A stretch of DNA of 63,976 nt, the filler included, from Collodictyon triciliatum (lineage: Eukaryota): NCBI GenBank assembly GCA_043381765.1. It is 6 parts of 6 records of this genome, joined end to end, with 100 filler letters (N's around TTAATTAATTAA, not from the genome) between each part and the next. Parts side by side here need not be neighbours in the genome. Positions count along the whole stretch, not along the records: positions 11,565 to 23,004 come from JBHJMP010002399.1; 5 more parts are not named here. The stretch is one strand, 5' to 3'. Below are positions 5,067 through 30,000 of this stretch, one piece after another; positions within the stretch are counted from its first letter, which is position 1; each line of letters starts with the position of its first letter. The notes under the pieces were generated by a model, which was given only the letters and a program-made list of their open reading frames with translations, was not told where the DNA came from and made no database searches. The position numbers were made by a program, and so were the translations under genes.

Positions 5067-5134
<68 letters not shown>

Positions 5135-8128
5135 GTTCATTTGGAGGAAAAAGAGTGCACCATAAGATTCCACTGACGGGTGTAAGGTAGAATTAATTTT
5201 TTTTTTTTATTAATTATTTTAGCTGTTATATATAAATATATTTTGATGTAAATCATTCCCATTCATCGCGTTTTACCTGCATATAGTGATAGTAATCATA
5301 CGAGCCCTGAACGAGATAATGGGTTCCACCAACAACTAGGAGAACAGGTAAGTAAGAAACGATCGAAAACATAGGCAAGATAGGATGTATGAAAATAGAA
5401 AGATTAAAAGAAAACCTCCGGATGATCCCAAACCAATGTGAACATCAGATAAACGACCTTTGGTTTACGTAAAATAAAATAAATTATTTTTAAAAAAAAT
5501 TTCATTCAGAAGAGAACATAGCTATATAAAATATACGAAAATATATTATCATTTTGTCTTTCGGAATACATATATTTTGCATGATAATGGGGAGGGGGAA
5601 TACAAGAAATCGGTCATTTATACCAGAAGAAAATTTCACGTTATCAAAATTGATTGCATTGGTGATTCGAACTAATGGTCTGTCAACTGGTAGTTGATAC
5701 ACCATGTGAATGTTTTGACGGTACGTAACTAAATTGAGTGTGGAAGAGTATCCATAAGAACTAGATGTTAATAGTAAGAGAGATACATGAAAATATAAAA
5801 ATAAAGGGTTTGCTCTATGAATGTATTCTTTATATTTTTTTTGGATTAAAATATTAGGTATACATGTGTTTTCCTCAGAGATGTCAGCATAAGTGGCCTT
5901 CATATATTACAAAAAAAAAATTAGACGAGAAATGTCGATTATAATTATCATTATTATTATTATTGAAAAAAAGTGAAAGAATTAAAGCAATGGAATATTG
6001 ATTGTAAGATGGTTCATGAATATACTTTTTCCTTCGGAATGACAGGATAGGAAATAGTCATGAGGTGAGGGACATGTGGAAACTTGTAGACGAAGTAAGT
6101 CGGCTAAACAGATAATAGTATTTTTTTAAAAAAAAATAATTTTTTTTTTGTATAAAGCACACGAGGCTGTCGATGAGTTCATAAATAAGCGTCATGTATA
6201 GAGTGGACAAACCACTGCTTGAGGCTTCACACTTGCCATCAACGCCAACGCATTAGCTTGGGATATGAGCGAGTTTTTGAGAGAATACAGTTGTTCCTCA
6301 ACTCGAATTATATATTGAAGTTTAAATGTTTATATATAAGTAACAGAGTTGGGAAAATATTAATCATGGAAGAGAAAGGAATATGAACACATGCGCACAG
6401 TATAGAAGTAGAAAGTGAATAGAAAAGGGAGAGTATAAAAGTAAAACAAATACGATTACTTGTTGATGATATGTGTGAGTACTGAACTACGTGTAGTCTG
6501 ATAGTTCTTTGTGTGTTTGAGACTTTTGGAATTTCTAGGTATATATTTATTTTTGTTATTAATATCCTGAAACATTCTAAAAATAATAATCACCCACCTT
6601 TGAGTTGGATATGTAGTATTTATACACCAAATATATACGTATATATAATATGAGATAGACTGAGGGAAAAATACACCACAGAAACGACGCGGTAATAGAA
6701 AAAAATAATATTAAAAAATGAGAGATTCTAAGAAAATACCTTTTGAGTAGGATAAGAAGAGTGCAGTTGGCTTTTTGGAGGAGGGCAACGACTGAGACCA
6801 AAATAATTTCAATTGTATTGGAGGAAGGAAAAACTTTCCGGAAGAAACTGCTGATTGCAAGTGTTGTGCCTGGGACTTGGAAGTCTTCTTTGTGGTGGCT
6901 TTTAAAGAAGAGGGCTCGTTTGTATTTTGACTCGCTGAGTAGAGACGACATGTTTTCTGCGCACTGACATTTTCTTCTCCATCACGCTTATTGACTTTTG
7001 CAACCAACCCGTCTGGATATGCAATGCATAATCTGGAGGACGAAAATATTTCGTCGATGTACTTTCTCCAATCCGCAATATCACCTGATGAAAATGAGAT
7101 GAAACGAGATATATTCACAAACACGTTTTTTTTTTTTAGTTTCCTTGTTTCAATTTATATATATTGAATTAGATATATATACAACCCCACAAAATCGGCA
7201 CCATAATTTTTATATAGGAGGTCATTGTACTCACCATTCAACTGCATCTTTAGCTCACACCGAAAGGGAACGTATTCACCATTGAATATTGCAGCCAGCT
7301 CGTCATCCGCCACCACGCAAACGTCAAGCGGTTCTATGGTTTCCTTGGAGGCCTGCATTTGCGCATCACATTTTCTTTACCATATCCACCTCGTTCCCAC
7401 CTCCCTCCCTTCCATAATAATAACAATAATAACAATAATAACAATAATAACAATAATAACAATAATAACAATAATAACAATAATAACAATAATAACAATA
7501 ACAATAACAATAACAATAACAATAACAATAACAATAAAAATAAAAATAATAACAATAACAATAACAATAACAATAACAATAAAAATAATAACAATAACAA
7601 TAAAAATAACAATAATAACAATAATAACAATAATAACAATAATAATAATAATAAAACTATAATAACAATACTCATAATCATATAAACACTGATAAGTATA
7701 TCATAGCAGGCAGAAAAAGCAAGGCAACAAAGGGGGATGGGGGGTCTTACGGCAGCGCAAATCTCGCCGGCCAAGGCGGCATGCCCAGCCCAGAGGACCA
7801 AGAGGCAGGGCCCTGCAGTCGACGAGCGGGGACCGGCCGGCGCATCCCACCCGCCCGCCTCAGCAGCCGCCGCCCACGCGAGCGGATCGACCGGGCCGCG
7901 CGGAAGAGCCACACCGAGAACGCGGATCCCGGCGGGGAGGAAAGCGCGGGCGTCTGCGAGGGACCGGGCGAAGGGCGCGGCGCAGTGCGCAGAGGCCGTG
8001 ACGACGGCTGCGTGGCCGATGCCGGTGCAGACGCAGGTGCCGAGCAGGAAGTGGGCTTTGCCTCCTGCGCTGCCCTCCGCACACACCCGCGCCGCAGTGC
8101 TGCGCCCAATCGTGACGCTGGTCTGCAT
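3734..8128 (-). CDS. UFSP2: Ufm1-specific protease 2 (peptidase C78) with a long N-terminal extension; about 15 exons
   Basis: Exons give [57 protein letters not shown] (catalytic Cys box), [42 protein letters not shown] (Asp-Pro-His) and [16 protein letters not shown] at 8128; exon 1 (8128-7751) splices in phase 0 to 7352. Confidence 0.9.
7414..7655. repeat. (AAT/AAC)n microsatellite in UFSP2 intron 1
   Basis: Directly visible. Confidence 0.95.
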
Positions 8129-8337
8129 CCCTGTGTGCTGCGCGTTTGGTGGGGCTCCGCTCTCTCGGCCGCTTCTGTGCTTTGGTTCTTGTTTATGGCG
8201 TTGTTCATGGCGCGGTCTCTCTTCTCTCTCCTCTCTCACTCTCACCCTCACTCTCACTCTCACTCCCACTCCTCTTCTCTTCTCTCTGACTTGTCTTGGC
8301 CGGCTCCTCTTTCGCCCTCGGCAGGCTGGGTTGCTCA

Positions 8338-10032
8338 TCATTTGTAGTTGAACTTCATGCGCATCACATAGCGCATGCGGATCTGGGCCACGTCGTAGAC
8401 AATAAACTCGTTGTAGAGCAGGCTCTGGGCGCGCGGGTTGTTGACGCCTTTGCCCTGGGCATTGGGGGTGGGCGTTGAGTCGGGGTCTTGGAATGTGCGG
8501 AAGGCAGGTGGTTCTTACAAGAGGCACCGTCACGTTCTCGGGGATCGTCTCGGCCTTGGACGGGTCGGGCTGCGTGCGTCCGATGCCCCACGTGCTGTGC
8601 TTGCCTTGTGCCCTGTCGTGCGGGTCAGTCGCTGGTTGCAAGGGACAGGATCGTCTGCTGTGTGCGGCAAACAAACAAGCAAACAAGCAAACAAGCAAAC
8701 AAGCAAACTAACAAACAAGCACTTGTCTGCACGTAATCATGCATGCATACTTGCAACTTTCGTTGGCCAGAAACTCAGAAGTGGTTCGCTCGTAGTAGTC
8801 ACCCAGGGCCACCTCGCAGAGCATCATCACGCTCACGTTTTCGGACGGCGTTGTGAAGCAGTAGTTTGCGCTCTTGCTGTATATATATATATACATATGC
8901 GTGTGTGCATGGTGTGTGGCGGTTAAGCGAGTGTATGAGTGCATATGGGAAAGTGCGTATGGAGACTCGGCCTCGTCTGCAGTCGGCACGCAAAAAACAC
9001 TCACCTGACCATGTCCGCAAAGTACACCCCCTTTCCAAACATGTACCCAGACACAGGCGCTTCTGGCGGGGCGATCCGCAGACCCTTTCATAAAAATTAT
9101 GATGATGATGGTGATGATGATGATGATGGTGATGATGATCCACAGAGTCTATCGAGTGCATGCTGATCACACCCATTGGGATAATTGATGCTGTTTTTTT
9201 TTTTTTTTTTATCTGTGATTCTTCTATGGTCAGAGTCTGGTGGCGGCGTTACCTGGCTGATGATGCCGACCCAATTCATGAGGCGCGACCCGTGCCACAG
9301 GAGCTGGTGGTTGTGCAACGATTTGTACTTTTCAAAGCGCGGGTCTTCGCTTTCGCGATGCGCACGAAACAGGTCCACAACCTCTAGGCTGTAGCTGCTG
9401 TGTGTGGTGGCGTGGGTATTCTCGACATACCGACTGCATAAGGATGCGTGTTGAAGCATTAGCCAATTATCAATTTCCATTATTTTCATTCTTTTCCTTT
9501 TTTTTTTTTTCTATCCTTATCTACATCTCGACTTTTAAACTCGTCCAAATATTTTTTCTTTCATTTTCTTCTCTTCACGCAGCCTTTTGCGTGCGTGCGT
9601 GCATAGTTTAATAACCATCCTACTATCTTATAACTTCGGTGCAGTGACAAAAACAAGGTTAAATGTAAACATACCGAACGACATCAAATTCGGGAGATGA
9701 CTTGTCCACCGGCTCCAAAGTGCACTTGAGGGCTTCATAGTTGATGTCGCTGGGATGCTTGGCCTTGGGCTTCGAGTCTTCTTCCTTCATCAGCCCACTT
9801 GCGTGGGAGACCGAAAGAATCGACTCGATTAGATCAATCTTTTGTCGAAGGAGCTCTTGCGTGTTAATGATGGGTGGAGGCTATTAAATGGTGATGATTC
9901 TCAGTCTTCAGAGATTGTGAGCGTGGAGGAAAAAAATTATGAATATGAATAAAAGCATTCCGTGTAAAATAATTGCGAGCAATATGTGTGATACAATGAA
10001 TCAAGGACTTCAATTGCTCGAAAATTTGGCAG

Positions 10033-10065
<33 letters not shown>

Positions 10066-10842
10066 CGTACTCTCTCGGGTGGGAACTGGTGGGGAATGGT
10101 ACTGTAGAATCGTGTGGTTGCGTCCCGGAATTTCAGCTCAAGAAGTTTTACATCTTTCGCAGCTTCTTTGTCTTCTTGCAAGAGTTTCTATGCACAAAAT
10201 AAAGTGGTTACTTCTTTCCTTATGATTGTTAATTGCAACACCAAACCTCAATAATATTGTTGTTGTTTTTTTTTTTTTTGATAAAAAAAAATATGTACTA
10301 AACGGGCGGGGTTTCCTTTTTCAATCACAATAACAATACATGTACACCACCTCAAATTCAGCAAGTTGGTACATTTCATAAAATGGCAAACCAACCAAAC
10401 TGGCAGGGGCAATCAATCATGGAAAAACGTGTATGTTTACAAATCCCTGCAGAGTATATATCACATTTACCTGTAACTCATTCAAAATTGCATAGCCGCT
10501 GCGAATTTGGTCCTGGCTCAGGGACTCCAGGTTGATTTTGCTTGTATCGATGTTTTGTTGCTGCAGAGAGCGCTGCATCATAGTCTTGTCGAAAATGAGG
10601 TCTACAAAGCTTTTCAGGGATGGAGCCAGCTTGCTCTGCAGACAAACCAGGTTTTTTTTTTTGTTAATAAATATTACACTGAGAACAAATAGACACGTCT
10701 CGCAACCATACTACCGCAAACATTATTTTCCTTTTCCAAAAGAAAATCATGGCAATTCACAGGAGAAGATATTACAGGTCATGATTTTTCTGTATGTAAC
10801 TTTCGATACCTTGACAAGATTGTTTTTAAAAATAATATTCAC

Positions 10843-11311: not shown

Positions 11312-11464
11312 GGTTTTTATTTTTTTTTTTTTTTTTTTTTTTTTTGTCGTTCCTTGGGGTGTGAAACTATCTAATATATGTGGTTGATTACCCTAACATA
11401 AAAAAAAGTTGATAAAAGTAGATTCAACTCACTTATTTCCCGTATGTTTGAGAAAGATTTCACG
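8338..11464 (-). CDS. Poly(ADP-ribose) polymerase, PARP1/2-like (end of WGR domain, regulatory domain, catalytic domain); 5' end lost in gap
   Basis: Exons read [22 protein letters not shown] (WGR end), [16 protein letters not shown]...[19 protein letters not shown] (regulatory domain), [65 protein letters not shown]...YK* (TGA 8340-8338). The H-Y-E triad is intact. Confidence 0.93.
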
Positions 11465-11564
11465 NNNNNNNNNNNNNNNNNNNNNNNNNNNNNNNNNNNN
11501 NNNNNNNNTTAATTAATTAANNNNNNNNNNNNNNNNNNNNNNNNNNNNNNNNNNNNNNNNNNNN
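11465..11564. other. Assembly gap with synthetic TTAATTAATTAA linker; same pattern at 23005-23104, 34573-34672, 43327-43426, 54853-54952
   Basis: Identical N-run/TTAATTAATTAA/N-run block five times; the linker has stops in all six frames. Confidence 0.95.
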
Positions 11565-12491
11565 AAAATTATCGCATGGATAGACACTCATTCTGCCTCA
11601 TTTGAGCAGCTCCGACGCGTCGAAGGAGCAACCTTTGAAGGTAGGATTATTCGGGGATAATGTCCTGAAATACCTCTTTATATTTGACATATTAAACTAA
11701 ATCAGCATTTGCCGAATTTTAAGAGCTATATTTATATACGTAGATATCATAACCCCTCTTCTATGGGCACTGCTCGAAATCAGTTGTGGATTACCACAAA
11801 TTAAGGTGGTAGTCTTACATATATATTATTTTTTAAAAAAATAACAGAAGCAGAAGCGCAAAACACTTCTTTATTGGATTCAAAGGGAGGTCTTCATTTT
11901 CTATCCGGCTGTTTCCATTTTTTCACCCTTAGTATAATCACATTAGAGGGACACTTCATCCTATCTGTCTACCATTCGAGAAATATCAAAAGTGACTGGC
12001 ATACCCTTTCTATTCGAAGGTTCATTGACAGCACTTTTCATCCCAAGCGTATTGTTCATCATGTTACTTTAACACTTTTCATATTTTAATATATTTTTTC
12101 CTAAAAATAGGAGCCAAATTTGAGGAGCAGTATCTGCTGCACGTTGCCCACTATTCCATCGTCCAGGACAGAGTAAATGACAGATATAAACACTCGCATA
12201 TCCATAATGCCATCTCTTATCGGGCACTACTGATACAGCTTTAATCACGCTCTTGATTATCAACAGATTCAGATAGCCCGAGATGGAGAAAAGAAAAAAT
12301 TCCGCAAGTGGGTTGCCCCTCCTCAGCGCTACGAGACTACAAAGCCACTAGATATCAAAATTATGGAGCAAGGTGTCTTACGTATCTTCATGTCATCGAC
12401 ATTCAGAGACATGCAGAATGAGAGAGACCAGTTCTTCCAGCATGGAGCAGTGGAGTAAGCATATAGCCATACACAGCTGATCGATTATGTT

Positions 12492-12543
<52 letters not shown>

Positions 12544-15500
12544 ATTTCCATTCACAGTATAATGCTATAAGGTTGAGGAAATTGGCTAAAGGAAAAGGAA
12601 TCGAATTAGTCTTCATTGATCTTCGATGGGGACTCACAGCCACCGACAGTGGAGATGGATGGGTAAGATTGAGCCGTTTTTATACAGTTAATTTGTGTCA
12701 TCCCCCCTTCGAATCAAGAGAAAAAGTTATGTCTTCCCACTCAACTCTATAAATCATTGCCCAGGTTGTCATTAGATGCTGTGAATCAATCGAGAAGTGT
12801 CCATACTTTGTATGTTTCTTGGGAGCTCGATACGGATGGGTCCCTGACAACAAAGACCCAACCCACTGGCACCCATCCACGTGGACTCGATTTCCATTTC
12901 TTAACGAAATCCCTGGTCTCAGCGTTACCGAATACGAGGTAAGGGTATATCAAGGAGAGAATCTCATAATGTATCACACACATGAACTGCATATATATCA
13001 CACATAACTCATAGCTACTCCGCAAACACAGATACAATACGCAGCTTTGATTGAAAATCCTGCTGCCAGCAGAGCTTTCTTTTTCTTCAGAGATGAGGAT
13101 TACGCAGTCCAGCACGCAAGAAACGAGGCTGAGAAAGTTCTTTACAGACCTGTGGACGAAAAGGATGTAATTGGAAACAGTTTTTTTTATTTAACGTCCA
13201 ATATTAACTCCTTTCTTTCTTGATACTAAGACATTTATATGTGTCCTTGGATCATGATGTTTTGTTCATGTGTAGAGGGCCAACCAAAACGAGCTGAAAA
13301 GGAAAGTGGGCGAAAAGTTTGGCGTGCTTACCTACCGAGGGGCTGTAGAATTCTCTGAATTAGTGACCAACCATTTGACTTATGCCATCGAGAAAGACTT
13401 CTCCAACCGCATAGTAATAATAACTTTTCTTTATGCCACATCAGTATTATTAATATTCTTGATGAAAACAGTAGCATATCCGCTTAAAAACACTACATGA
13501 ATCCTAATATACCCTTCGCCATTGTTCTGTGCTTTATCATACTTTCGGTAATTCTCAATCCTCTCTCCTTTTTTTTTTTTTTAAAAAAAAAATCAATAGG
13601 TAAGAGAACCAGAAGACCAGGCGCACTTCCAATTCATGCAGCACCGTATGGCAGGGTTCGAGGGAAGGCAAGTTCTCTTGGATGAAATCAGCGCAAAGGT
13701 AATTGTTGGCTTGCCAGTAGAGTGCTTTTGCTTGTATCAATACATCAAAATTTGCTCGGTAACATAACCTCTGGAATGATATCAGGTAAACGAGCAATTA
13801 GACGGAGATGGCACGAATATCACTATGCTAGCAGCAGAATCTGGCATAGGCAAATCGTCACTGATGGCAGCATCGACCACTAGACTGCTGAGCGCAAAAA
13901 CACCCAACCTTTTTGTCATATATCATTTTGTTGGTTGTACTAACCTAAGTAATTATGTGGAAAGGTGACCGCTTCTTTTTTAAACATTTTTATAGTTGCA
14001 ATACAATCGTCTCCTTGTAAATATAATAAAATAAAATAAATATAGCATTTCGATTCGTTTCTGGAATTCTGTTTTGACGGTCGACAATTTGGGACTCGAC
14101 CCGAAACTGAAAGATGGTACCCTTTTTATTGTACAGAAAGAACAAAAAATTAATAAAAAATGAAACAGTAAAACCAGAACATCTATCTTATCATTCTTCT
14201 TTTTATAGAAACATTCTTCAAGAAGCAAGGAATTAGCGGACTATTGAAGCTCATATCTAATTCCAACTTGTTTGGTTTTATATTAACAATAATTATTTTA
14301 CAATTCAAATATATATATCATTACATATTTCCGTGGTTCGTAATTGTAAATAAAACAGAAAAGGAAGGGAATATGCAACGCTAAGAAAATACCATATAGG
14401 CCAAACAAATTTGTTTTCATGATTGACGCGGTGAATCAGCTTTATGCATCTCAAGAAACCCCCGTCCCTCATTTGCTGACTTGGTTACCAAAGAAAACAA
14501 AAAAGAATATTGCCTTAGTTGTTTCTACCATCGACACTCACGAGTCATGCAAAGTATGAATCCTAATTATTTTTTTCAGTAACTAAATATGCTAAAAACA
14601 TATTTTTTTATTCTTCCTTTCAATTTTGTGCGGGATGGTGGAAAATATGCTAAAAACAGACATTGCATAGCCTATTTTAATTATAATATTCGCCGCAAAT
14701 AGGTTGCACAGTCCAACCAATTACCATTGATTCCCGTCAAAAGACTTCAGAAAACAGAAATTCAACAGGCTGCTGTGTCCTTCCTGGGAAGATACGATAA
14801 GAAGCTTACTGAAGAACAAATTGATCTTATATTAAAAGATGAAGACGACACTGGTATGTACTCATTCAACCCTCACGTCTCATAGACTTCTATATAGTTA
14901 CTTATATTTCATCTAGTGTAAGATGAAATAATAAGAAAGCTTTGCACTTGAATCCAATTAAGGAAAAAAAGGAACTCTTCACTATTCGGTGCAAAAATGT
15001 TGCGTGTGAGTGCCCTGGACTAATCCAGATACCCCTAGGTCACCCATTGTATCTACGTCTGGTACTCGATGAGCTTAGGATATTTGGAGTTTATGAAAAA
15101 CTGACCGACGAGTTGCACGTCCTGTTGCGTACTAGTGGGACCATAGACCTTTACACACTGATCATCAACCGCTGGAAGATTAAATTCAATAAGAAAAGTA
15201 ACAAATAAAAAACATTCTTCACATCCCACTTTTAAGGTGGCCATTCTGTGGTTTACCTCCCAACTTCCTGATCCTTTTTTTTTTTTTTAAGGAAACAGTT
15301 TTACCTTGACTAAGTGGCATGTTTTAATTTAACTACATATTCCATTCATAGATTCAAACTTAGTCGATCTTGCTATGGCTGTCCTTCATGTCACCAGAAT
15401 TGGCCTTAGTGAAAGCGAACTTGATAACTACCTTGGTTCTAGTATAGGAACGTCCTTTGATATGGCTGAATGGTTCCATTTCTCATGTTCACTCTTTCCC

Positions 15501-18273
15501 ATATGCTCATAAAATTGCGTATCATTCCGATGATTAAATCTCAACTAAAACATCCCGATTTAGGAAAGCTTTCTTGTATACTCTGTCCGAGTCACTCTTC
15601 GTAAGAAATGGAAGGTATATCTATATTATGAAAGTATTACTTACAAGTGTTATAGCAGCATATCTAAACAAATATTCCCAGTATTTGCCTCAATATTCTA
15701 TGCATATCATTTTCTATTATCTTTTCACTATTTTTTAAACTTCCTGTCAGCACGATATACTTCATTCACAACAATATCTAATTAACACAGATATTATCTC
15801 TGCTTGCTTTAATACTGATTAAGTACCTTTCGTTTACATCGACGACAGGTTTATGTATTTCCATCAGCTTTTGGTAGAAACAGTGCAGAATTATTTCTTT
15901 GAGGCCAAAGGAAGTCGCCAGGTGGCTCAAAAGTCGTATGGGATGTGGTTATACGCAACCTACTTTGATGATAAAGATGCAGACGAGGAAATAATTGCCG
16001 AAACATGTTTTCACTTGAACGCGTCAGAATGTTTTATCGAGTTGATTGGGTACCTAAAAAAAGAACACGTAAGTAGCAGAACGTACGTATATAACCAATA
16101 TATCTCCTCATTTCTAATCCAAAATTCAGGTTGTCCAAAAAATGCTTCAAGGTCGCTACCGATACGAATTCTTTAAGCATTGGAGAGATATAAGTGCAGG
16201 GGGACATGCTAAAGCGACGGATACGTACGAAGTTTTTGTCAAGGTAATCACAGCACATCCATTTACAATCCTTCACCATGAAACCATAAAATAGTTTATT
16301 TGAAGATCCAACATTGGTTTTACCCAAAAATGTTCTCGGTAGCTTTGGAGGGATTGAAAAAAAAAAAAAAAAAAAAGAGAGAAGAAAAGAAGAAAAATTA
16401 AATATCTAGTACTGACCTTTTTTTCATCGAAGGATATCAATCTCATTGGGGATCTACTGGTCGAATACTTTTTGGAGGCTTACGAGAACTCTTTTCTTGT
16501 GCAATGCATCCCACTTCGAATAACGAAAAGGACTAAAGAAGGTCAGCTAAATGTCTCCCTTTGATAATCTGAAATCAGCCACATATCGCACATTCCATAA
16601 CACTAACATGTTTTTATTTACAGCCGATAAATTTTCTGATTACATTGCTCTGGGCAAAGTGTATAAGAGTCTCCGAAAGTTTGTTTAATAGCTCACTATA
16701 TTACCTCCACCATTCATGCAATCGTTGTGGGCACAATCATAAATGTAAAAAAATTCACTAAAAATTTTAGATGGAAAGAAGCCTTAGATAATTTTCTTAA
16801 ATGCTTGAGTCAAAAGACAGTCCTTGGCGAAACAGATGACGAAGTAATATCATCTCTTTATGAAGAAGTTGGTGACATATATATGAACCAAAATAGGTGA
16901 GTTAATGATAACCCTTAATACATTATGTTTACCCATTCATGCTGCACATGGTCTAATTATATCATGTCATACAGAGAAACGAGGAGTAAATATGTTGGTC
17001 ACGGTTGCCACCACACAAAATAATCCCTTTGACAAAATCTTTTTTTTTTTTTATAGTACTGATGATGCTCGTGAAAACTTTGAAAAAAGTCTCTCAATCC
17101 TCAAAAAGCTTTATGGAGAGTCCAATATGCAAGTGGCCCAATCCCTTGACCGTCTAGGCTCTGTTGACCTAAAATCAAACAGGTAGGAGCATATCTATTC
17201 ATTTGAGAAAAACAAGGAGCGCGAATCTTAGCCTTCGCTTGTCCCTCTACCGGCATTTTCTTTCCCTTCCTCTTTACATACATATTTTTTTCTTTTTAAG
17301 CACCACTATTTTTTGAGGATTCCTAATTATCGCATATCGATTAGGTTAGAAAGCTCCCTGAAGTACTTCGAACAGGCTATGGAAATTCGCAGCAAAGTTG
17401 TTGGGGCAGACCACCCTTCCTATGCCCTTTCTCTCATTAATATCGGACATGTTCATTTGGCCCAAAAAAAGTTCGTCATCAATCGGTTTCTTTACCTAAG
17501 GAACTAACCAATCATGTAATTACCATGGAATTGTGCGCAGTATATTGCTGACTTTTTTCTTTCAAATGCAAAGAGATGAGGTAGCCATGGAGAGTTATGT
17601 AAAGGCAAGCAAGATTCAAGAGGGAACATTTGGTCGCCAGCACCCTTCTGTGTCTAGCACCCTACGCTACATCGCATCTATCCACCAAACGAGACAAAAG
17701 TTTTTTTCTTTTTACAATGAATATTATTTCTCATTCTTAAATTTGAGTTTGTGCACATGTTCCCTTTATCTCATATTTTATGCACCAAATAACTCCTATC
17801 GAGGTTCCATAACGCCCCACCACTGCAGAAGAATATAATTAATTCTTTTTATATATAACACCTGAAGCTACGCTGAAGCTATCTCCGTCCTTAATGAATG
17901 CCGTGGGATTGATACCAAGTACTTTGGAGAAAACCATCCTGATGTCATCCAGACAATTGAATCAATCGGATCTTGCTACAGTTCAACAAAAAAGTATAGT
18001 ACTAGACTTCAATAATATGAAATATCCCAAAGCCTATTCTTTTATAGTAGCCTTTTAAGACGCAGAAAATCTTTTGTTTTGGATAATTCTCGGTCATTGT
18101 TATACTGAATCGAAAATATGTTATTTAGTCACGAGAGCGCGCTTCTACAGTACATCAAATGCTTAGAAATAAGACGCAGGACTTTGGGAGACAATCACCC
18201 TGATATAGCCACTTCTTTGGAGAACATCGCCAAATCGAACCACGAGTTAAAAAGGTAGAATAAAAGAAAAAAG

Positions 18274-18304
<31 letters not shown>

Positions 18305-21300
18305 GAAAAGAAAAACGGAAAAAGGGACACTGTGAATAAGTTGCCGATCATTAATCATAAAATATGACGCTCAGCGTAATAAGCCTTTCTTAATGCACCA
18401 TGTCGCATACACTCATATGCAGACGCTAAAGCCGCCTTAAAATCGTGTGCGATATATTTTAACTATGGAATCAATAGAAAGGACCAAGTGTTTGAATTCA
18501 TTGATGAGGCAATCAAAATTCGACTCCAATCTGAGACGTCCATGTCTTATCAGGACCCATCACAATCAAACCAAATCGGAGATCTTTTACTCGAGCTCAA
18601 ACGCATTGATGCTGCCCTTCACGTTTGGGTACACACAACGAATATTTATGGAGTCTTGTCTGGGTGGAACGCACCAGAGGTATGGAGCGTGACCACAAAA
18701 GCTGACCAGATGCTGCTGGCAGAAAAATTGTACGAGAAATCAGTAGAACTCTGGATAAATTTCCAGTCAAAGTTTATACCAGAGCTAACTTGGGGTCATG
18801 AAAATGCACTTCGAGCAATAATGTATCAAGAAGCAGCTCTCTACAAGAATGGACAACCCAAAGTTGTCGTGGATTTGTGGTACAAGATAAATAAAATCGT
18901 CCTGGACAATGTTGGATGGGCACATAAAAACACCTGGACTAGCTTCTCAAAAATCGACGAGTCTTTGGAAAAGATCAAAGATAACGAACGAGCAGTCGAA
19001 CTATGGAGCAGAGCATATCCATCTTTCATTGAAAAATTCGGTCGAGAGCACGAGTCCACTTGGTCTGGAATACTAAAATACGATTCATCTTTAGTAAAGA
19101 AAAACGATTTCCAAAAATTGTTCGACTTCTGGAAAAAGATGGAAGAAGGGTACGTGGATGAGTTTGGAAGTGGCCATAAGCATGCTCAGTATTGCACCAA
19201 CAAAGTGGCCGAGTATGCAAAGAAGCTCGGTGTCAAGGCGGAGGAAATGGATAATATACTATCTAAGGCCAAAGCAAAGGCTCTTTCCGTTGCGAGGGAA
19301 ATCCTCCATTGGCCAATGTCTGAGAAGCCATTTGGAATGCATGAAGTCGTCTCAGCCTTGTTTTCGGTCGTAATGATGTCAAAAAATAACGAAAGCGTAA
19401 AAAAAACAGCATCGGATTGTATGTCGCTGCTGAACCAGCTCGACGTTCCCCTATATGGACATGATTTTAACAAGATTTCTATACCCAACGCCAATCTAAG
19501 TGGGGCCATACTAGATGGATCAAACTTCCAACACGCACATCTAGAGGGCACCAACTTCAACAACTCATTCTTTGGAGGAGTCGATTTATCATACTCGCAT
19601 CTGAGCGAGGCCAATCTAGGAATTCCTCATGGTAGATTCGTTGCACATAAGGAAAAAATTCACTCTGTTTGCCCGCTTCCAGGTCCGAAAGGCGAAAATT
19701 GGATTGCATCGTGCTCTGGTGGATATGGAGGGGACAAGGTTGTAAGGATTTGGGATGTTGACACTGGCCTGCTGCTCAGAACGTTCACAGACCACACGGG
19801 CGACATTTATGATGTTTGCGCTTTAGAGGGTCCAGATGGAGAAAAGTGGATGGCATCCTGTAGTGGCAATCACGATAGAAAAATTCAAATACTGGATTTA
19901 GCTACAGAGAAGCGCATTCACTCTCTAACAGGACATACTTTCGATGTCCATTGCATCTGCCCAATAAGGGGCCCCAAGGGTGAAAAATGGATTGCGTCTG
20001 GTGGAGGCTATACGGACAAAACCATACGTATATGGGACTATGTAGAAGGTAAACATATCAAGACACTTCAAGGACATGCTGATTCTGTTCTATCATTATG
20101 CGCCATAGACGGGCCAGAGGGTCAACAGTGGCTCGCGGCTGGATGTAGATTTGGTGCAAAATTGGTCTACATTTGGGACGTAGAGGAGGGGAAGCTCATA
20201 AAGTCCATGAAAGGCCCGACTGGTGACACATTTTCCATTATAAAAGCGAAAGATGCTAATGGAAAATGGTGGCTTATTGTTGGAAGCCACGACGAGAAGA
20301 TAAGACTTTATGATTTGCCTGAACTAACAGAATGCAGGGAGATTAAAGGTCCAAATTATGTAAACGACATGACTGCTCTCGATGGACCAAACGGAGAAAG
20401 TTGGATTGCAGTCGGTTCAACATATAACTTCACTCGAGTTTATGATGTAACAACACTGGCCCAAGTAAAGGAAATCACACAAACTTCAAAAGTGGTCGGC
20501 ACTCAATCGATGTGCGTCATCAGAGACAGACATGGTGATCAATCAATAGTCACAGGAGGCGCCGACTACATTATTCGAGTCTGTAATGTCAAAAGCCCTC
20601 GCTCGTGCTCATCTAAAGACTTCAACAAATACGCAACGTTCAGACTCCCCAGTCAACCTAATGACTACCTCGTCACAACCAACGGAGGGAACATTTTGCT
20701 CATCTGGAATCTCTCCAACGGCACTCTAGAGTCAACACTAGAGGGACACACGAATTACATCAACGGGGTGGCTTCTGCGACGAGTGGTTCTGGCAAAGTA
20801 CTCATTTTGTCTGCAAGTGATGACAAATCTGTCCTCGTTTGGGATGCTGTTGAACGCAAGGAAATTGCCAGATTGACGGGGCATGAGCATGCGGTGACAA
20901 AAGTTGTATGCTTGCAGAGAGAAGGAAAGCCTCTCGTCGCATCCCGGAGTTCTGATAACACGATCAGAATATGGGACTTGGATACATTCAAGGAGGTTTC
21001 CAACATCCCAGTGGGTTCTTTCAGTTTCAGCGCAAACCTTGAAGCGATTTGGACCAAAGAGGAAGCAAAGGAGACCGTAGGTCGCTTTAAGAATATCGGA
21101 GATGCTATTGTGCTCACCGAGCACGACCTATCGAAAGGCGAAGGAATATTTGATGGGCAAAAGATCCGTAAAATCGAAGGTGGAGAAATCAGAGTGGATG
21201 GTGTCGATTGCCCTGCGTACTTGAGAGATAGTCTCATTTCTATCGGCGGATTTACAAACACGGCTGAATTTTGGGAACTTTTCAAACAAGGAATATGTAC

Positions 21301-22669
21301 AGAGAGTCACAAGTCCAGAATTATCAAAGAGATTCGATCAGGAGCGGATGATATTCTATCGTTGGTAAAGAATCTTGGGGAGGAAGTCCTCGAAACTGGA
21401 AAGTACAGATATCCACATGCATCCTTGATAATGTCAACATGTTACTCGAAAGGTGTTGGAGTTGAAAAGAATGTTATCATGGCCTATGAAATACTAGGAA
21501 AGAACAGCTTATTCAATTTACTAAGCAACCACGCCAAGACAGACCCCTTGGCTTTTAAGGTGTTATCTACGTACTTTGACAAAAAGGAGAAAGACGGAAA
21601 ATATTCGTTCCCCAGTGCTCTATCTGAGGGGGCTGAGTGCCACAAGAATGGATGGGGCACAGAAAAGAGCATCGACAAGTACTATGAGTTTATTGGGAAG
21701 CTGTCTCGATTCGATGAATTGTTTGAGTTGTCCAAGAAGGGCACACCAAAGGCATTCTCTGTATTGAAAGAGTATGCTGATGTCCAGGATTCCAACAAAA
21801 AATACCCTAACAGCAATGTTGTCAACCAAGTTACGCAATGTTATCTTAACGGATGGTCGACAGAAAAGAATACGGAGCTTTATTACGAGTATCTTGCTCG
21901 CCAGAATAAATTCGAGGTTATCATGCCGTTTGCTGAGAAACTAGACACAAAGGCCTTCGATGTCTTGAACAAGTACTCACTCATCAAGGACTCTAGCAAT
22001 AATTTTGTCTATTCTACGGCTTTGCTCTATGTCGGCGACTGCTATGCAAATGGATTCTGTGTCGAAAAGAACATATCCACAGCTGCTCTGAAGTATGGGT
22101 TAAGTGCCTATGAGCGAAATTCAAAAGCCTTAGAGAAGCTGAAGCCACTGGCTGATGCAGGAAATGCCCAAGCCCAAGCGCGATTGGGAATATGCTACCA
22201 TGATGGAAGGAGTGTGAATCAAAACTATGGCGAAGCCATGAAGTGGTACAAGCTGGCCGCTGCCCAAAACCATCTCTGGGCTTGTCGCAATATCGGTGTC
22301 CTGAATTACTACGGAAGCGGAGTCACAAAGAATCTGGAAGAAGCTGCTCGCTGGTTCTCCAAAGCGTTTGAAATGGGCGAAAAAGATGGGGCTGAGCAAT
22401 TCATCAAGAACTTTAAGGACTTTAAAGGGGCCAAAATGGACGAAGACGTGAGAATCACTTTCCTAAGCGTCAACTGCGTCCAACAAGATGCAGTCAATGA
22501 ACTCACGGCCATGCACAAGGCTGGAAACGAGAAAATCTTCAAAGCGTGCAAATATGCCTTCGATAAAGGATACACTAAGGCTGCGCTCATTCTGTCTCTC
22601 TGCTACGGCAGTGGACTCGGAGTTGAGGCTGATGCGACTAAAGCAGAGGAATGGAAGAAGGCGGCGTAG
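11565..22669 (+). CDS. NLR-like STAND protein: DUF4062 - NACHT-type NTPase - 42-aa TPRs - pentapeptide repeats - WD40 - Sel1; about 30 exons, 5' end in gap
   Basis: Exons read LRIFMSSTFRDMQNERD...IDLRWG...CPYFVCFLGARYGWVP (DUF4062, as in TEP1/NPHP3-like proteins), AHFQFMQHRMAGFEGR, LAAESGIGKSSLM (Walker A), FMIDAVNQL (Walker B), GHPLYLRLVLDELRIFG and kinesin-light-chain-type TPRs. These splice in phase 2 into terminal exon 18478-22669 (ORF 18488-22669), which has pentapeptide repeats, GH...WD repeats and Sel1 repeats. Confidence 0.85.
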
Positions 22670-22739
22670 TTCTCGCGAGTGCGGTGGAGATTGAAATGTG
22701 CGCACTGGTGGGCGGAGAGAAGAGGCGACGCACCATTTA

Positions 22740-23004
<265 letters not shown>

Positions 23005-23139
23005 NNNNNNNNNNNNNNNNNNNNNNNNNNNNNNNNNNNNNNNNNNNNTTAATTAATTAANNNNNNNNNNNNNNNNNNNNNNNNNNNNNNNNNNNNNNNN
23101 NNNNAAAAATAAAAAAAAAAGTAATAAAAAACAATAATA

Positions 23140-24061: not shown

Positions 24062-27000
24062 TTACGAGTGACCTTCGTAAAGAGGATTGCTCTTCATCAT
24101 GCCTTGCTCGGTGCTCGCTTCATAGAGAGGGTTACTGGAAAAGATATCACCCTCCTTCTCAGGCAGTTGGAAGTTGTAGTCTTCCTTAGCAGAAACACGC
24201 TTGAAGACCCAGAAGGCACCAGCGATAGCAGCAACGGCACCAACAGCACCACCAGCAACCGCGGGCATGATGCTTCCCCCGGTTTGGTTGAGATTCTCAT
24301 TTGAGGTAAGTGCAATCTTAATTCGGACAGTGGTTTCCTTTGCTCCTCCAGTGCCCGTGTTACCTCCATCGTTCACCGTCACCGTCACATGTGTTGTTCC
24401 GTTCACATTTGGCGGTGGATTGAAGACCAGGCCAGACAGCGCGCTATTGACATCGTCGAACTTTCCTGTGATTACGATTTCTGCCGCCCCAGTAGCGAAG
24501 CTTTCTGGAGACACCTCGACTCCCATAGTGTTTGGAATGCTGACTGTACCAATGTCTGCTTTGACTGTGGCGATGTACGGCTTCTGTGGATTATTGACGT
24601 TGAAATCCAATTCGCGGATAATAACACCCTTGATGACAACGGCTGTACCAGCAGGTGTTGTGATATTTGCTGGTATCTCAATTATTGGCGGGTCATTTAC
24701 AGCTACCACATTAATGGAGACAATGGACTCGACAGAATAAAGTCCGGCTGTACTTACCACCCGGAAAAAGAAGTTGTCGAAACCAAGCCCAGACTTGTAA
24801 GCAGGAGGCTGATAGACAACATACCATTTTCCATCGTCGCTTGGTGGGAAAACGTAGGGGTCGAACTCACTTGGAAGGCGAATCGGATTAATGTTGACAA
24901 TATTACCTTCCATGTCACTCAGATAGAGAGGTCCGTTTGCCGTTGCGGCTGTCAGCTGTGCACCCATCGAGAGTCCATTCGGGTCGCTGCCTTGCAGTGT
25001 GATGACAACCTTTGTGCCCTCATTTGTGGAGACTGTGGATGGATTGCTTATACTGGTTGGTGGGTAAATGACGTTTGTGACAACGATGTTGATTCTCTGC
25101 TCATTTGAAATGGCCTTTGAATCGTTCAGGTGGTACGAAAAGCCAAAAGAGCCTTCGCCTTTGAGAGATACCGGTTCGTATATAATTCTCCAAGCATCTG
25201 TCAGGTCAACTTTGTCTCCGACGTGTATCAGCCTCCCTATTGAAACTCCGTTCGTCGTTTGTCTCAATACACCAGTGGCTGGAATTGATGTTATGTAAGC
25301 GCTCAACAAATCGCCATCCATATCAAGACCGCCAAGCTTGATAACTACGTTCTTATTCTATAATAATAAAATTAAAAGTTTGGATGAATGGGAGTTAATA
25401 TAATGTTAAAATTGTTGGTTTTATTTGAAATGTAATTAGAAACCTCGGGTGTGGTGTATGTATCAGGATTTGCAAATGCGACTGGGGCGTTATTGAAGAA
25501 ACCGGTAATTACCACATTCACAAGGTAATCACCAGATTCATAAAAACCATTGAACGATGCATACTTGAAGCTAACATCAATTTGGGATGGTTCCAGCGAA
25601 TGGTATTCCAGCTTTGAAATGTTGGTGCTATCGATTGTGTAAGGGAGTTGGATTTCCTGGATAGTATGGCTGTTAAGGCTTAAAACCCCTGTCTCAGGCA
25701 AGCTCTTTATAAGAACACTTAAGACTTCTCCGTGGATATCAGATATTTCAGTGGCAAAATCAACTATTACAGACTCCACTAAGTTTCCAGAGACCTTAAA
25801 GTCCTTTGCGGTAGGAATGAAGTTCACTTTCTTAACATCAAAATCAATTTCCAACGAAGTAGATGAAGATTTCTGTCCGTCACCAATAGCGAATTCTACT
25901 TGGTCATATGATTCTCCGTATGAGACTGAGTAAATGCTGAAGCTTGGTCTGTATGTGAATGTCCAGACTGATTCCTCTCCTGTACCTAATTTGGATATTG
26001 GTCCGATTTCTCCATTGCTTGGTGGGGATATGATGGTGAGAATTAAGTTGTCATCATCTTTGTCTGTAAACAAGTACGCCTGTACAAGGGATATTGTCTC
26101 AGTGCCATTCTCAAGCACGCAGATTGACATCTTGGGCACAAGAACCTAGGTAGGGAGTGTTTTGACTTGGATAAATATCACAATTTCAAACCATATTTAA
26201 TAAAGTAAAAAAATTAAAGAAAATGTAAGAAAGGTTCCATATGAGTTTGTTATTGATAAGCTATAGAAGGGTGATTCCAAAAAAAAAACCTCTGGAGCGT
26301 GGTTGATGTGCGTAACGTGGATTTTAACTATTATGGGCTCCGTCACGGTTGTTCCATCAGATATAATGTAGCTGAAGGAGCCTGCGTCTCCACTAAAATA
26401 GTCAACTGGCACAAATGAGACCATTGCGCCAATAGGAAGAGATACTCCAGTTTGAGTCAAAATAACATTATTGATAATGACGTATCCAAACTCAGATTTC
26501 GGTAGTGAGTTTATTGTAAGCGTCAAAATGTCTGCTCTATCGACATCTGTAGCATCAAGTTTAATTACTGAATTGGGAACCGAGAATGACGAAATGTCAT
26601 CGGCACTATGAGGTTTTTCGAATACATTTATGTCAGAAGTTTCCACTGGAGAGGGTGCATGATTGACATGGTTGACTACAAGTGACAGTGTCTGCTCTGT
26701 TGACTCGAGTTTGCCGTCGCTTACATAGTATCGAATCGATGTTAGTGGATTGCCAAATGTGTACTTGGGTGGCGTGTATGTGAGTGTCCACTGTCTGCTG
26801 ATGCCCCCTCCAATCGCAGTGCCGCTTGATGATATAGCAGTTCCATTCCAGTCTGTCAATACCCCAGTGCTAGGAAGTCCGCTGATGTACGCACTCAGTG
26901 CGTCATTGTTGTCATCCTGTCCGCCGATTGTGAAAGTCACGGATTGGTCTTCATCGAGCGATGGCACACTGTTTGTGGTGGTGACAGGCGCGAAGTTGAC

Positions 27001-30000
27001 ATATGTGGTGCTCACAACAAGCTCCAGCTCACTGGACTTGAGTCCGGCTGGGTCTTGTGTGTATACCTTGATTCGGTCGACCTCACCGACATACAGCGCT
27101 GGCACTACTACGTCCAACATACATAGTCCGTCGCTTGTCTTTGCGAGTGGCTTGCTGGTGTCGATGCTAGCTCTGTTTTGTTGTAGCTTGATTTGTGCGT
27201 TTGTGTGGGTTGAAATATATGCTTCAGTCTCATCCCCATCCGGATCAATCCCTACAATTATGAAACTCACATATCGAATGATCTGTGAGTCAGGAATGAT
27301 GATGTTCGATTCTTGTGCATATGTGTATGGTGCAAAGTTCTTATCATTTATTGCTATGTTGACTGGGATATTAGAAACTGCCTGGCTTTCTCTAATTGTT
27401 ATATTGAAAAAATCTTGCTGAGTTCCTTCAGATATCTCTGGGTTTGGTGCTTGGTGAACGTACAATAGATCTGCACTGACGGTTTTACTAAATTGCATTA
27501 TAGTATTTGTGATATTGATGTGATTGGCATCAATCTCAAGAGCAGGATAATAGAGTTTTCCTTTCGTTGGCAACGAGATTATCTCCATTTGGGCATCTAG
27601 TGTGCTGGATTGGTCTGGAGTAATATCGATGCTAATTCTAACTGATTCTCTTTCACCCACAGTTGGTAGACTTGGTTTTAGCGTGGCCTTTGGCACCAAA
27701 GCTGAAAAAAGAACGTCTGATCCAACTGTCACAGAGACCGGAGCTGACAATTTGTCAGTGACTGTGACAGTAATTGAATCATAATCGGGAATATCTCCTT
27801 CGCCCATTTCTGGAGCTTTATAGATGAATTCCAATGATTTATAATTCATGCGGGTGATATTCAAAGTTTCATTAATAGGAATACCTCTGAAAAAGTAAGT
27901 ACCTTTCACGGGTACTTTTGGTATAATTGTAATATCCAATTTAGTAATATCTTCATAGCCCTTCATGGAAATAGAAAATGGGGCACTCTGTCTCTTTGCA
28001 ACACGTATATGCGATGATGGAGTCGAAACAAGAAGAGTGCGGTAGACTCCTGTGACCCCAATCGTCACGGTCGCAGCTTGCGAATCTGATTTGCCGTCGT
28101 TCGCTGTAAACGTAAATATTGTGTATGGGTTGCCGAATGAATTTGGTGCGTTCAAGAAGCTTACGGTCTTAGACGCACCGAGAGAAAACGGTACCGCGGT
28201 AATCGCTTTGCCGTTGAACGACAGCGTGCCTTTGGATGGGAGTGTGCGTATTGTGTACGTCAGTGTCTCAGCTGGTATGTTTGCGTCTGTCGCAGCTAGT
28301 GTGACGGTCACCGGCGTGCCTTGGTTTGCTTTGACACTTTGTGATTGAGAAACGGGTGCGATGTTGACATAGTTGACGGTTATCGGCACGGTCTTTGTGT
28401 CAGCCGCTTGGTTGTTGTCAATCACTTGTACACTGATTTGGTCTGTGTAGAACTGGTTCGCTGCTGGCGTGTATTTCAGTGTCACTCCGTTGGATGGAAG
28501 GGTGTACTTTGTGTTTACCACTATGGAAGTGCTTTCCATCATCAGCGATGAACCAGCTCTGGTCGGTAGTGCTGTCACGGCAAAGCTCAGGGTGTCGCCC
28601 ACGTCGACATCTTGTCCGTTGATAAGAATCGAAGCTTCGACATTCAGGTTGGTGGTGACTGCTGTCGGCACAGTCGCTGTGGGCGCGTGGTTGACGTGGT
28701 TGACGTTGATTGATAGCGTTTGCTCGTTCGACCGAAGCTGTCCATCAGATACGTAGTATCGGAAGGTGGTCACTGGTTTACCATACGTGAGCTTCGGAGG
28801 TGTGTACCGGATAGTGGTCGACCCACTGGTCATTACAAGTGGTGTATTTATCGTCACGTTCAAAGTTCCATACGTCAATGTCCCGGTTGTCGGAAGCTGA
28901 GATATGTACGCTGTGATAGCATCTTTGTTGTCGTCTTTGCCTCCCAGCGGTATATCGATGAAGCTGTCTTCGTTACAGTCAGGTGTTGTTGTGGTGGTGG
29001 TTGTAGGTTTTAAGTTGACTTTATTGACTGAGTTGACTAATACTCCTGGACTTCCTTTTGGTGGCATCAAAATATTGTCTCTTACATATATTTCTATCTT
29101 TGTGACCTTATCATATGTTAAAGGTGGGACATTTATGGATACAACCCAATTCGTAGATGCTGAATTATAAGATGGCATCACCCCCCTTTCTGTTTGGAGC
29201 CTTACATTCGAGTTGATGAGCACCGGGGTTAGCTCTGTATTAATGTTGAGTACACTTCCTTCGTTTACCGCTATAATATCATCAGAAATAACGAGTTCTG
29301 TGACTATCGCATTGATGTCATCTCCGTCTGGGTCGATACCACTAACAGTGAATATCACCGTCTGTGGCGATGGAGAAGCTTGGATGGTAATACTGGGCGG
29401 ATTCGTACTTACGATCGGGAAAAAATTGGTGTCTTCTACAACTACATTCACAGTTATGGTTGATGACTTGGCGGTGTTCTGAGTGCTCAGGGTGTATGTA
29501 TCGGTGTTTGCCCCAAGAGATACATAGACAGATGACGGAACAGGCGCAACATAAACAATCTGGCTACTGATGCTCCCCGCGTTGCTTGTAGATATGACTT
29601 GGCCGCTGCTCAGTGCATCGCCTGTGGCCCGACCTTGGCTATCTGCGAGATAGAGCTTGCCGTTGGTGGGCACGCTTGTGACAATGAGTGTGATCGCCAG
29701 TCCGTCAAGGTCGCTTGCCGTTACCGTTGTTGCTTGTTGTTGCTGCTCTTGTATCGAAATGCTGCTAGGATTGGACGATATCACTGGATTTCGTGCAACA
29801 AACTCTACATTTGTTGTCACGCTGGCAGCCGTCGATGCCAGATTGCTGTTGTCGATCACTGTGTACGAGAAGGCGTCGAGGTTGTTTCCGTAGTCTTTCG
29901 CTGCTCCTGCAGGTGGTGGTGTGTACACTACAGACACAGCGCTTTGCGATGCACCAAGCGGTGTGGTATATCCGTTGGCGATTGGTGTGCCTCCGATGCT

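Follow-up and report, generated by a model that had tools for sequence, protein, structure and literature searches.

A run of six equal TPR exons in an NPHP3-like DUF4062-NACHT gene of Collodictyon triciliatum is probably an old, constitutively spliced array

When neighbouring exons share one length and one intron phase and each encodes one repeat of a sensor domain, do they serve to vary a receptor, or are they part of a repeat array that has long been fixed? This question is raised by six consecutive exons between positions 16771 and 18254 of a 63,976-nucleotide (nt) stretch of DNA from the protist Collodictyon triciliatum (GenBank assembly GCA_043381765.1), referred to here as the window. 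The window is made of 6 parts of 6 records joined end to end with 100 filler letters between each part and the next; parts side by side need not be neighbours in the genome, and positions count along the whole stretch. The exons lie in the part derived from JBHJMP010002399.1 (positions 11,565 to 23,004), within a gene of the STAND (signal transduction ATPases with numerous domains) type that resembles genes of nucleotide-binding leucine-rich repeat (NLR) receptors. An earlier reading, made without database searches (the sequence-only reading), had regarded the six exons, each thought to encode one tetratricopeptide repeat (TPR), as a cassette for the diversification of an immune sensor. Our computational analysis leads to a different answer. 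With a probability of roughly 0.75, the six exons make up the first half, split by introns, of a solenoid of ~12 TPR units of the kinesin light chain (KLC) type in an NPHP3-like STAND protein, and this array is old, fixed, constitutively spliced and under purifying selection.

The exon arrangement as such was described correctly. Reading of the sequence and a script both gave 126 nt for each of the six exons, with AG directly before and GT directly after, and all six are open in one frame with 1 base left at the 5' side and 2 bases at the 3' side, in agreement with the phase-2/phase-2 pattern. The peptide that had been quoted, LESSLKYFEQAMEIRSKVVGADHPSYALSLINIGHVHLAQK, is the translation of 17346-17468. 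Because all seven flanking introns are in phase 2, any subset of the cassette exons stays in frame, and the loss or gain of any single one would indeed leave the reading frame intact. The remaining exons of the gene are as uneven as had been stated: the 18 other internal coding exons have 18 distinct lengths (51-220 nt) and mixed phases, and six neighbours of the same length are therefore not due to chance. If exon lengths were drawn from 51-220 nt, the odds of five repeats of one value would be ~1e-11 according to our arithmetic. The seven cassette introns (92-223 nt) are mutually unrelated in sequence with only T-runs in common, and the donors following the six exons are GTGAGT, GTAGGA, GTTCGT, GTTTTT, GTATAG and GTAGAA. 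The last of these introns contains an (AAAAG)n microsatellite (18259-18324).

To assess splicing, assembled contigs of four public runs (X1 to X4) were aligned to the window, with spliced contigs coming from three studies; stretches without cover in X2, X3 and X4 were given no weight. Parts of the gene are present in at least 17 public runs from 14 studies, and those recorded as RNA are freshwater, lake or aquatic metatranscriptomes. The joint 16678>16771 is spliced in X1, and a loose end of 11 letters at 16678 in X4 is identical to the beginning of the exon that follows. The joints 16896>17057 and 17182>17345 are spliced in both X1 and X4, and 17470>17574 in X1, X2 and X4. Eleven GT..AG introns upstream of the cassette are also spliced out in contigs. 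The joints listed are thus these four and eleven out of 24 in total, a number that equals the intron count of the gene model give or take one variant. The joints 17699>17868, 17993>18129 and 18254>18478 were deduced from records 4 and 5 of X1, and by our arithmetic the bin depths fit. Record 4 has a length of 689 nt, corresponding to 28 nt, 5 x 126 nt (exons 19-23) and ~31 nt of exon 24; 16771-16892 is located at its letters 540-661 and 17053-17180 at 412-539, and the 411 remaining letters equal 3 x 126 + 33 nt. Record 5 gets to 18479 only at letter 106. The check for exon skipping was negative: among the joints listed none links non-adjacent cassette exons, and one contig contains exons 19-23 in order. 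The X1 strain is ~1% diverged from the window, with 40 differences over the 3695 nt compared in the last exon, and its exon order is identical.

The statement that every exon holds one TPR unit is right as far as the period is concerned. The peptides of five of the six exons match Pfam TPR_12 (E 1.2e-8 to 0.026), exon 19 giving no match, and two of the six, exons 21 and 24, exceed a curated TPR_10 or TPR_12 cut-off by themselves. A family profile finds units 2-6 with independent E-values (iE) of 1e-13 to 1.2e-7. Each exon thus carries one full 42-amino-acid (aa) period, but as a circularly shifted unit with an offset of half a repeat. In five of the six exon peptides, residue 1-6 is matched to position 19-24 of the TPR_12 profile. 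The intron therefore interrupts the turn that links helix A to helix B, the exon border falling at position ~19-20 of the Pfam TPR_10/TPR_12 profiles. Each cassette exon is composed of helix B of unit n, a GxxHP linker and helix A of unit n+1, and it is exactly one period long because one phase-2 intron is found in the A-B turn of each of the first seven units.

Similarly, the description as an array of six holds for the equal exons but not for the repeats. The array runs past 18254, with unit 7 beginning at the phase-2 acceptor of the last exon (18478) and five further 42-aa units following without introns. In units 8-12, W8 is invariant (5/5). A hidden Markov model (HMM) of the six exon units was too narrow to detect units 7-12 and was replaced by the family profile, built from 977 units, which is matched by unit 11 at iE 1.2e-6. 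An exhaustive phmmer search with the region of units 7-12 returned 188 proteins with E<=1e-3; of the best 12, 10 are rich in TPR_12. Direct comparison of this region with Pfam TPR_12 was not significant (E 0.02), hhalign against the six exon units gave E 4e-4 at a probability of only 35%, and a single-sequence AlphaFold model of units 7-13 is all-helical with a mean predicted local distance difference test (pLDDT) score of 39 and is unusable. As the last acceptor, an AG at 18421-22 was rejected, as it leads to phase 1 and an immediate stop, while the AG at 18476-77 is consistent with phase, frame and X1 record 5. Upstream of this acceptor, the last exon's frame remains open for 95 nt (18383-18477) and reads ..ADAKAALKSCAIYFNYGINR, with a faint likeness to the start of a TPR exon; neither the 6-unit HMM nor the 977-unit family profile scored this stretch.

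From the splice joints of the RNA contigs and open-frame constraints we built a gene model of 25 coding exons on the + strand (coding sequence 12363-22669, 7122 nt, 2373 aa). Its domain order is DUF4062 (TIR-like), a NACHT/NPHP3_N nucleoside triphosphatase (NTPase), ~12 TPR units, pentapeptide repeats, WD40 and Sel1 repeats. The intron 13414-13599 was placed by record arithmetic and the open frame. For exons 13 and 14, the sequence alone permits 55 open solutions, and the borders chosen were confirmed by gap-free alignment to the database protein P0159. The last exon, of which 18479-22173 is spanned by a 3800-nt X1 RNA contig, gave Pfam matches to WD40 (3.1e-33), Sel1 (4.3e-25), Pentapeptide (6.9e-14) and Beta-prop_TEP1_2nd (6.7e-13). 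An Rfam scan of 12000-23000 gave no match.

That the cassette lies downstream of a DUF4062-NACHT-type module was borne out by the DUF4062 score, the Walker A motif and end-to-end alignment with relatives. DUF4062 scores 27.3 bits on the open reading frame of exon 3 (cut-off 24.7, E 4.2e-6) and has E 0.022 on exon 1; the best match of the N-terminal domain in the Protein Data Bank is the TIR-like domain of TEP1 (11gz_A, E 0.014). The motifs RIFMSSTFRDM, DLRWG, LGARYGWV and SVTEYE are intact. In an alignment with five relatives, RIFxSSTFxDM, DLRWG, LGxRYG, S-[VI]-T-E-x-E and the Walker A motif GESGxGKS are all intact, S-[VI]-T-E-x-E being kept in the model and in all five of these proteins. The spliced N-terminal 724 aa match 6 of 150 listed relatives (E 1e-45 to 7.5e-72), and relatives exceeding the cut-offs of NACHT or NPHP3_N can be aligned with the spliced N-terminus over its full length (E 1e-45 to 2e-59). 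Five relatives align over ~1150-1250 aa at ~24% identity and carry DUF4062 together with NACHT or NPHP3_N and/or TPR_NPHP3 above cut-off. Among the relatives, P0262 exceeds the cut-off of NACHT, P0246 that of NPHP3_N, and P0229 those of NPHP3_N and NB-ARC. On sequence grounds, the NTPase module is best named NACHT/NPHP3_N-like, and the gene is predicted to encode an NPHP3-like DUF4062-NACHT-TPR STAND protein with an added WD40/Sel1 tail.

Furthermore, the age of the array and the selection acting on it were assessed. In the 15 pairwise comparisons the six cassette exons show 29-44% nt identity (mean 39%) and 12-37% aa identity (mean 22%), and neither these exons nor their introns bear a trace of recent duplication, conversion or exchange. 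Inactivated TPR exons were found neither in the introns nor on the opposite strand nor elsewhere in the 64-kb window (next match of the 6-unit HMM: E 0.53). With the 977-unit family profile, the next match in the window outside the gene has E 5.9, and there is no second TPR gene. When a profile of the six exon peptides was compared with longer proteins, 358 matches were obtained; the best 120 of them are all generic TPR proteins, mostly bacterial by name, with no orthologue or paralogue among them. Residues 505-1088 of the model share 41% identity (237/584) with residues 1-583 of P0159 in an alignment that has only one gap, of 1 residue (E 4e-139), and covers the helical domain and TPR units 1-9, matched one-to-one. 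Units at the same position in the model and in P0159 share on average 33% identity versus 20% off the diagonal, and for five of the six cassette units the positional partner is the best one. Because P0159 matches unit by unit, the unit array predates a deep split and its unit number was kept. The strain differences do not favour diversification either: among 40 of the 64 differences to the RNA contigs, 27 are synonymous and 13 non-synonymous, and both of the 2 that fall inside the cassette are synonymous.

Several points weigh against our interpretation. Three of the seven cassette joints were deduced and are not seen among the joints listed, and assembled contigs lose rare variants, so that the ordered form is shown while low-level skipping could escape. 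Distant relatives (~24% identity) have up to 15-18 TPR_12 stretches, and unit number therefore changes over deep time in this family, which is common among repeat proteins. With 2 differences, the cassette offers too little variation for a judgement on selection within it. An orthologous genomic locus was not confirmed in two metagenome scans, one with the TPR-like region of the window and one with P0159 as the query. Direct Pfam support for NACHT on the gene's own exons is below cut-off, the P-loop matches on single exons being AAA_16 at 0.013, nSTAND1 at 0.014, NACHT at 0.061 and NPHP3_N at 0.094. Finally, among the four human proteins NWD1, NWD2, TEP1 and NPHP3, only TEP1 showed NADase activity in vitro in the part of Osinski et al. 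2026 (bioRxiv 10.64898/2026.05.01.722283) used here, and an effector function of the head in the gene described here is putative.

How do other explanations compare? That the intervals are not exons at all, or that the locus is a pseudogene, is scarcely credible. When the first 400 aa encoded by the last exon were compared with a 5.8-billion-protein database, no annotated protein of the gene was obtained, but only pentapeptide proteins and one Reticulomyxa NB-ARC protein at 32% identity; however, the spliced GT..AG joints in RNA contigs of three studies already refute an artefact, the frame is open over the whole 2373 aa, and the spliced product is collinear with six database proteins. The idea that the symmetric exons form a diversification cassette, in which skipping, duplication or swapping by alternative splicing or recombination varies an immune NLR-like sensor, deserves more attention. 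Every exon subset is in frame, skipping of an exon would still link a helix A to a helix B as the border lies in the A-B turn, and there are precedents, namely the study of Zambounis et al. 2012 (PMC3341825) and that of Teng et al. 2023 (Plant J) on alternative splicing of Ectocarpus NB-ARC-TPR genes, as cited in PMC11378527. TIR-like domains of the DUF4062 type moreover act in bacterial immunity according to the part of 10.64898/2026.05.01.722283 mentioned above. We nevertheless consider a working diversification system very unlikely, and the proposal is not supported by the data, which, as far as they reach, largely agree with the outcomes that the sequence-only reading had itself named as refuting it: the RNA joints are ordered and include no skipping joint among those listed, the exons and introns show no similar copies and no pseudo-exons, a protein of 41% identity matches unit for unit, the differences are mostly synonymous (27/40 of those listed), and the window contains no second TPR gene.

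The remaining explanations concern the origin of the introns within one register, and here several routes may be envisaged. A 126-nt exon may have been duplicated in tandem together with its intron long ago, or introns may have entered the turn in parallel, each time at an A-rich proto-splice site (AAR-AAR / GT) that recurs there. The lack of introns in the 3' 4.2 kb may be due to intron loss biased towards the 3' end. In the rather unlikely case that no exon was ever duplicated, the array would have been complete and intron-free first, as in bacterial and other DUF4062-NTPase-TPR relatives, and the seven introns would have come in afterwards, each by a separate insertion, at one and the same proto-splice site of every repeat. 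This would agree with units that are mutually as unlike (22% aa identity) as they are compared with units of unrelated proteins, with bacterial TPR proteins being 36-56% identical over parts of a unit, with junctions that are always A-rich (the exons end in ..AG or ..AA before GT), with the unrelated introns, and with units 7-12 that lack introns though they keep the same register. On the other hand, seven independent gains at exactly one codon position and phase are a lot, and 3'-biased loss accounts equally well for the intron-free units. Furthermore, the TPR exons of Ectocarpus are of equal length and, judged from the search motif GKYxEA...LLxxQ in the part of PMC3341825 used here, in about the same register, which therefore fits the inheritance of a split unit. 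It is also conceivable, if unlikely, that the 126-nt exon is the very same split module as in brown-algal NB-ARC-TPR genes, an ancient phase-2 unit passed between NB-ARC and DUF4062-NACHT STAND families by exon shuffling, which might still give rise to rare or condition-dependent exon-skipped isoforms. We favour an old and fixed array, whichever way its introns arose. The features of the gene are compiled in Table 1.

Table 1. Coordinates of the DUF4062-NACHT-TPR gene and of its 126-nt exons, in positions of the window
Feature	Position	Strand	Details
5'-untranslated region (UTR) intron	12173..12266	+	GT..AG, 94 nt; end of the upstream UTR exon at 12172; X1, X2 and X4 have loose ends ahead of 12267, their 30-letter consensus being 12143-12172, followed by GT
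Coding exons 1-4, DUF4062 TIR-like domain	12363-12454, 12572-12662, 12765-12938, 13032-13166	+	Pfam and alignment with five DUF4062 relatives; RNA joints
Coding exons 5-12, linker and P-loop STAND NTPase (NACHT/NPHP3_N type)	13276..15197	+	Walker A GESGIGKSS in exon 7 (13786-13964); Walker-B-like FVFMIDA in exon 10 (14400-14553); RNA joints
Coding exons 13-17, helical region between NTPase and TPRs	15352-15472, 15564-15614, 15849-16068, 16130-16243, 16433-16541	+	Gene model; RNA joint 16068>16130
Coding exon 18, helix A of first TPR unit	16624..16678	+	55 nt, 5' phase 1, 3' phase 2; length arithmetic of X4 record 20; joint 16678>16771
Cassette exon 1/6 (coding exon 19)	16771..16896	+	126 nt, phase 2/2; degenerate TPR period; RNA joints on both sides; no Pfam match; family profile iE 0.013
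Cassette exon 2/6 (coding exon 20)	17057..17182	+	126 nt, phase 2/2; TPR_12 E 2.5e-5; RNA joints in X1, X4
Cassette exon 3/6 (coding exon 21)	17345..17470	+	126 nt, phase 2/2; TPR_12 35.4 bits and TPR_10 30.0 bits, both above cut-off; RNA joints in X1, X2, X4
Cassette exon 4/6 (coding exon 22)	17574..17699	+	126 nt, phase 2/2; TPR_12 E 0.026; family profile iE 3.1e-8; 5' joint in RNA, 3' joint deduced from X1 record 4
Cassette exon 5/6 (coding exon 23)	17868..17993	+	126 nt, phase 2/2; TPR_12 E 8.4e-5; joints deduced from length of X1 record 4 and bin depth
Cassette exon 6/6 (coding exon 24)	18129..18254	+	126 nt, phase 2/2; TPR_10 30.6 bits, above cut-off; X1 record 5 has 105 letters ahead of 18479
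Seven consecutive phase-2 GT..AG introns, one repeat register	16679..18477 (span)	+	16679-16770, 16897-17056, 17183-17344, 17471-17573, 17700-17867, 17994-18128, 18255-18477
Start of last exon, TPR units 7-12	18478..19231	+	Intron-free, 42-aa register kept; units 8-12 of a Trp-rich subtype
Remainder of 4192-nt last exon	19232..22669	+	Linker; pentapeptide ~19487-19591; WD40 propellers ~19682-21031; Sel1-like, best 22166-22273; stop 22667-22669

Some observations were made beside the cassette. Intron 10 of the gene contains a T-rich segment of ~40 nt between 16-nt direct repeats (AAATATGCTAAAAACA) at 14588-14657, which occurs in a large number of unrelated RNA contigs from X1 and X3, at very high bin depth (210 and 130) and with many loose ends at 14597-14644; it looks like a small dispersed repeat, with no match in Rfam. 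Along the window, a PARP1-like gene with PARP regulatory and catalytic domains (8711-10710, - strand) is located head to head with the DUF4062-NACHT gene, ~1.6 kb upstream of it. Its best database relatives also have zf-PARP, BRCT and WGR domains. Both neighbours belong to families of NAD+ users, which may well be a coincidence. In human cells, TEP1 and PARP4 are both found in the vault.

Exons of a UFSP2-like Ufm1-specific protease are located at 3737-5906 on the - strand (Peptidase_C78 E 4.7e-11; UfSP2_N E 3.7e-4). Very long open frames are present at 24065-32850 on the - strand (431, 257 and 2217 aa, with the 2217-aa one being a single 6.6-kb frame). They encode Ig repeats of bacterial type and cadherin-like repeats (Big_9, Cadherin_4, Ig_SibA, DUF4114) and, at the C-terminus, a segment resembling a membrane anchor, and the G+C content of this region (0.42-0.49) is above that of the surroundings. 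In a G+C-rich island (0.505) at 7300-8900, long open frames overlap on both strands, and runs of low complexity (poly-Leu / ITI repeats) are present. Very long A/T and AAAAG-type tracts with N-run assembly gaps are found near 11400-11520, 22700-23050, 43380, 51130-51650 and 54850.

Regarding the function of the protein, the TPR solenoid would be one part of a chain consisting of a DUF4062 TIR-like head, a NACHT/NPHP3_N NTPase, a helical domain and the TPR array, with pentapeptide, WD40 and Sel1 repeats as an extension. The repeats would, by analogy with TEP1, NWD1 and APAF-1, keep the NTPase off until a ligand is bound, and oligomerisation might then activate the TIR-like head. In the human proteins NWD1, NWD2, TEP1 and NPHP3, DUF4062 is described as a TIR-like NADase fold next to NACHT (Osinski et al. 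2026, bioRxiv 10.64898/2026.05.01.722283, consulted in part). The gene of C. triciliatum is like NPHP3 in its order of DUF4062, P-loop NTPase, helical domain and TPR_10/TPR_12 array, and its end-to-end relatives pass the Pfam cut-offs of TPR_NPHP3, NPHP3_N or NACHT; it is like NWD1 and TEP1 in its C-terminal WD40 propellers, which include the Pfam match to a TEP1 propeller. It differs from this group in that it joins TPR and WD40 repeats in one chain and adds pentapeptide and Sel1 repeats, and the identity to relatives of the named families is only ~24%.

The brown-algal precedent cited in the sequence-only reading holds. According to the part of Zambounis et al. 2012 (PMC3341825) on which we draw throughout, Ectocarpus siliculosus has 13 NB-ARC-TPR loci with 124 TPR exons of 126 nt / 42 aa, inactivated TPR exons in introns are characteristic of these loci, and exon shuffling was argued for. 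In both cases a STAND NTPase is followed by KLC-type TPRs in a run of 126-nt / 42-aa exons that are symmetric and keep the frame. In both, too, the exon border appears to lie near the Q/GKY A-B turn, for Ectocarpus as judged from the search motif, and the junction codon of the gene described here corresponds to the K of GKY. The two differ in several respects: here the NTPase is of the NACHT/NPHP3_N type with a DUF4062 head instead of NB-ARC, only six units are split into exons and the other six share one exon, pentapeptide, WD40 and Sel1 domains are added, and at this one locus neither inactivated exons in introns nor near-identical exons nor signs of shuffling were found. The exons for leucine-rich repeats (LRR) in brown-algal ROCO genes (72 nt, phase 2; PMC11378527, in the part available) likewise encode one repeat each, are separated by phase-2 introns throughout and belong to a candidate receptor gene, although with an LRR as the repeat and a different GTPase family; for those genes alternative splice variants and intronic exon copies are reported, whereas none were seen in the contigs and introns analyzed here. 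In the limited library of literature searched, no further lineage with a 126-nt TPR-exon structure was found.

Overall, 126-nt TPR exons have already been published for Ectocarpus, and what the gene of C. triciliatum adds is a conserved and probably constitutively spliced array in an NPHP3-like STAND gene. It provides an RNA-supported STAND/NLR-like gene outside the brown algae with a TPR sensor made of symmetric 126-nt exons, and it assigns this type of exon organization to the DUF4062 (TIR-like)-NACHT family, to which NPHP3, NWD1 and TEP1 belong. It can also serve as a control case: the gene structure that in Ectocarpus was taken for dynamic shuffling can exist as a frozen, conserved array as well, and therefore exon symmetry alone is no evidence of receptor diversification. 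If the intron positions prove to be identical to those of Ectocarpus, the split TPR unit would be dated deep in the history of eukaryotes.

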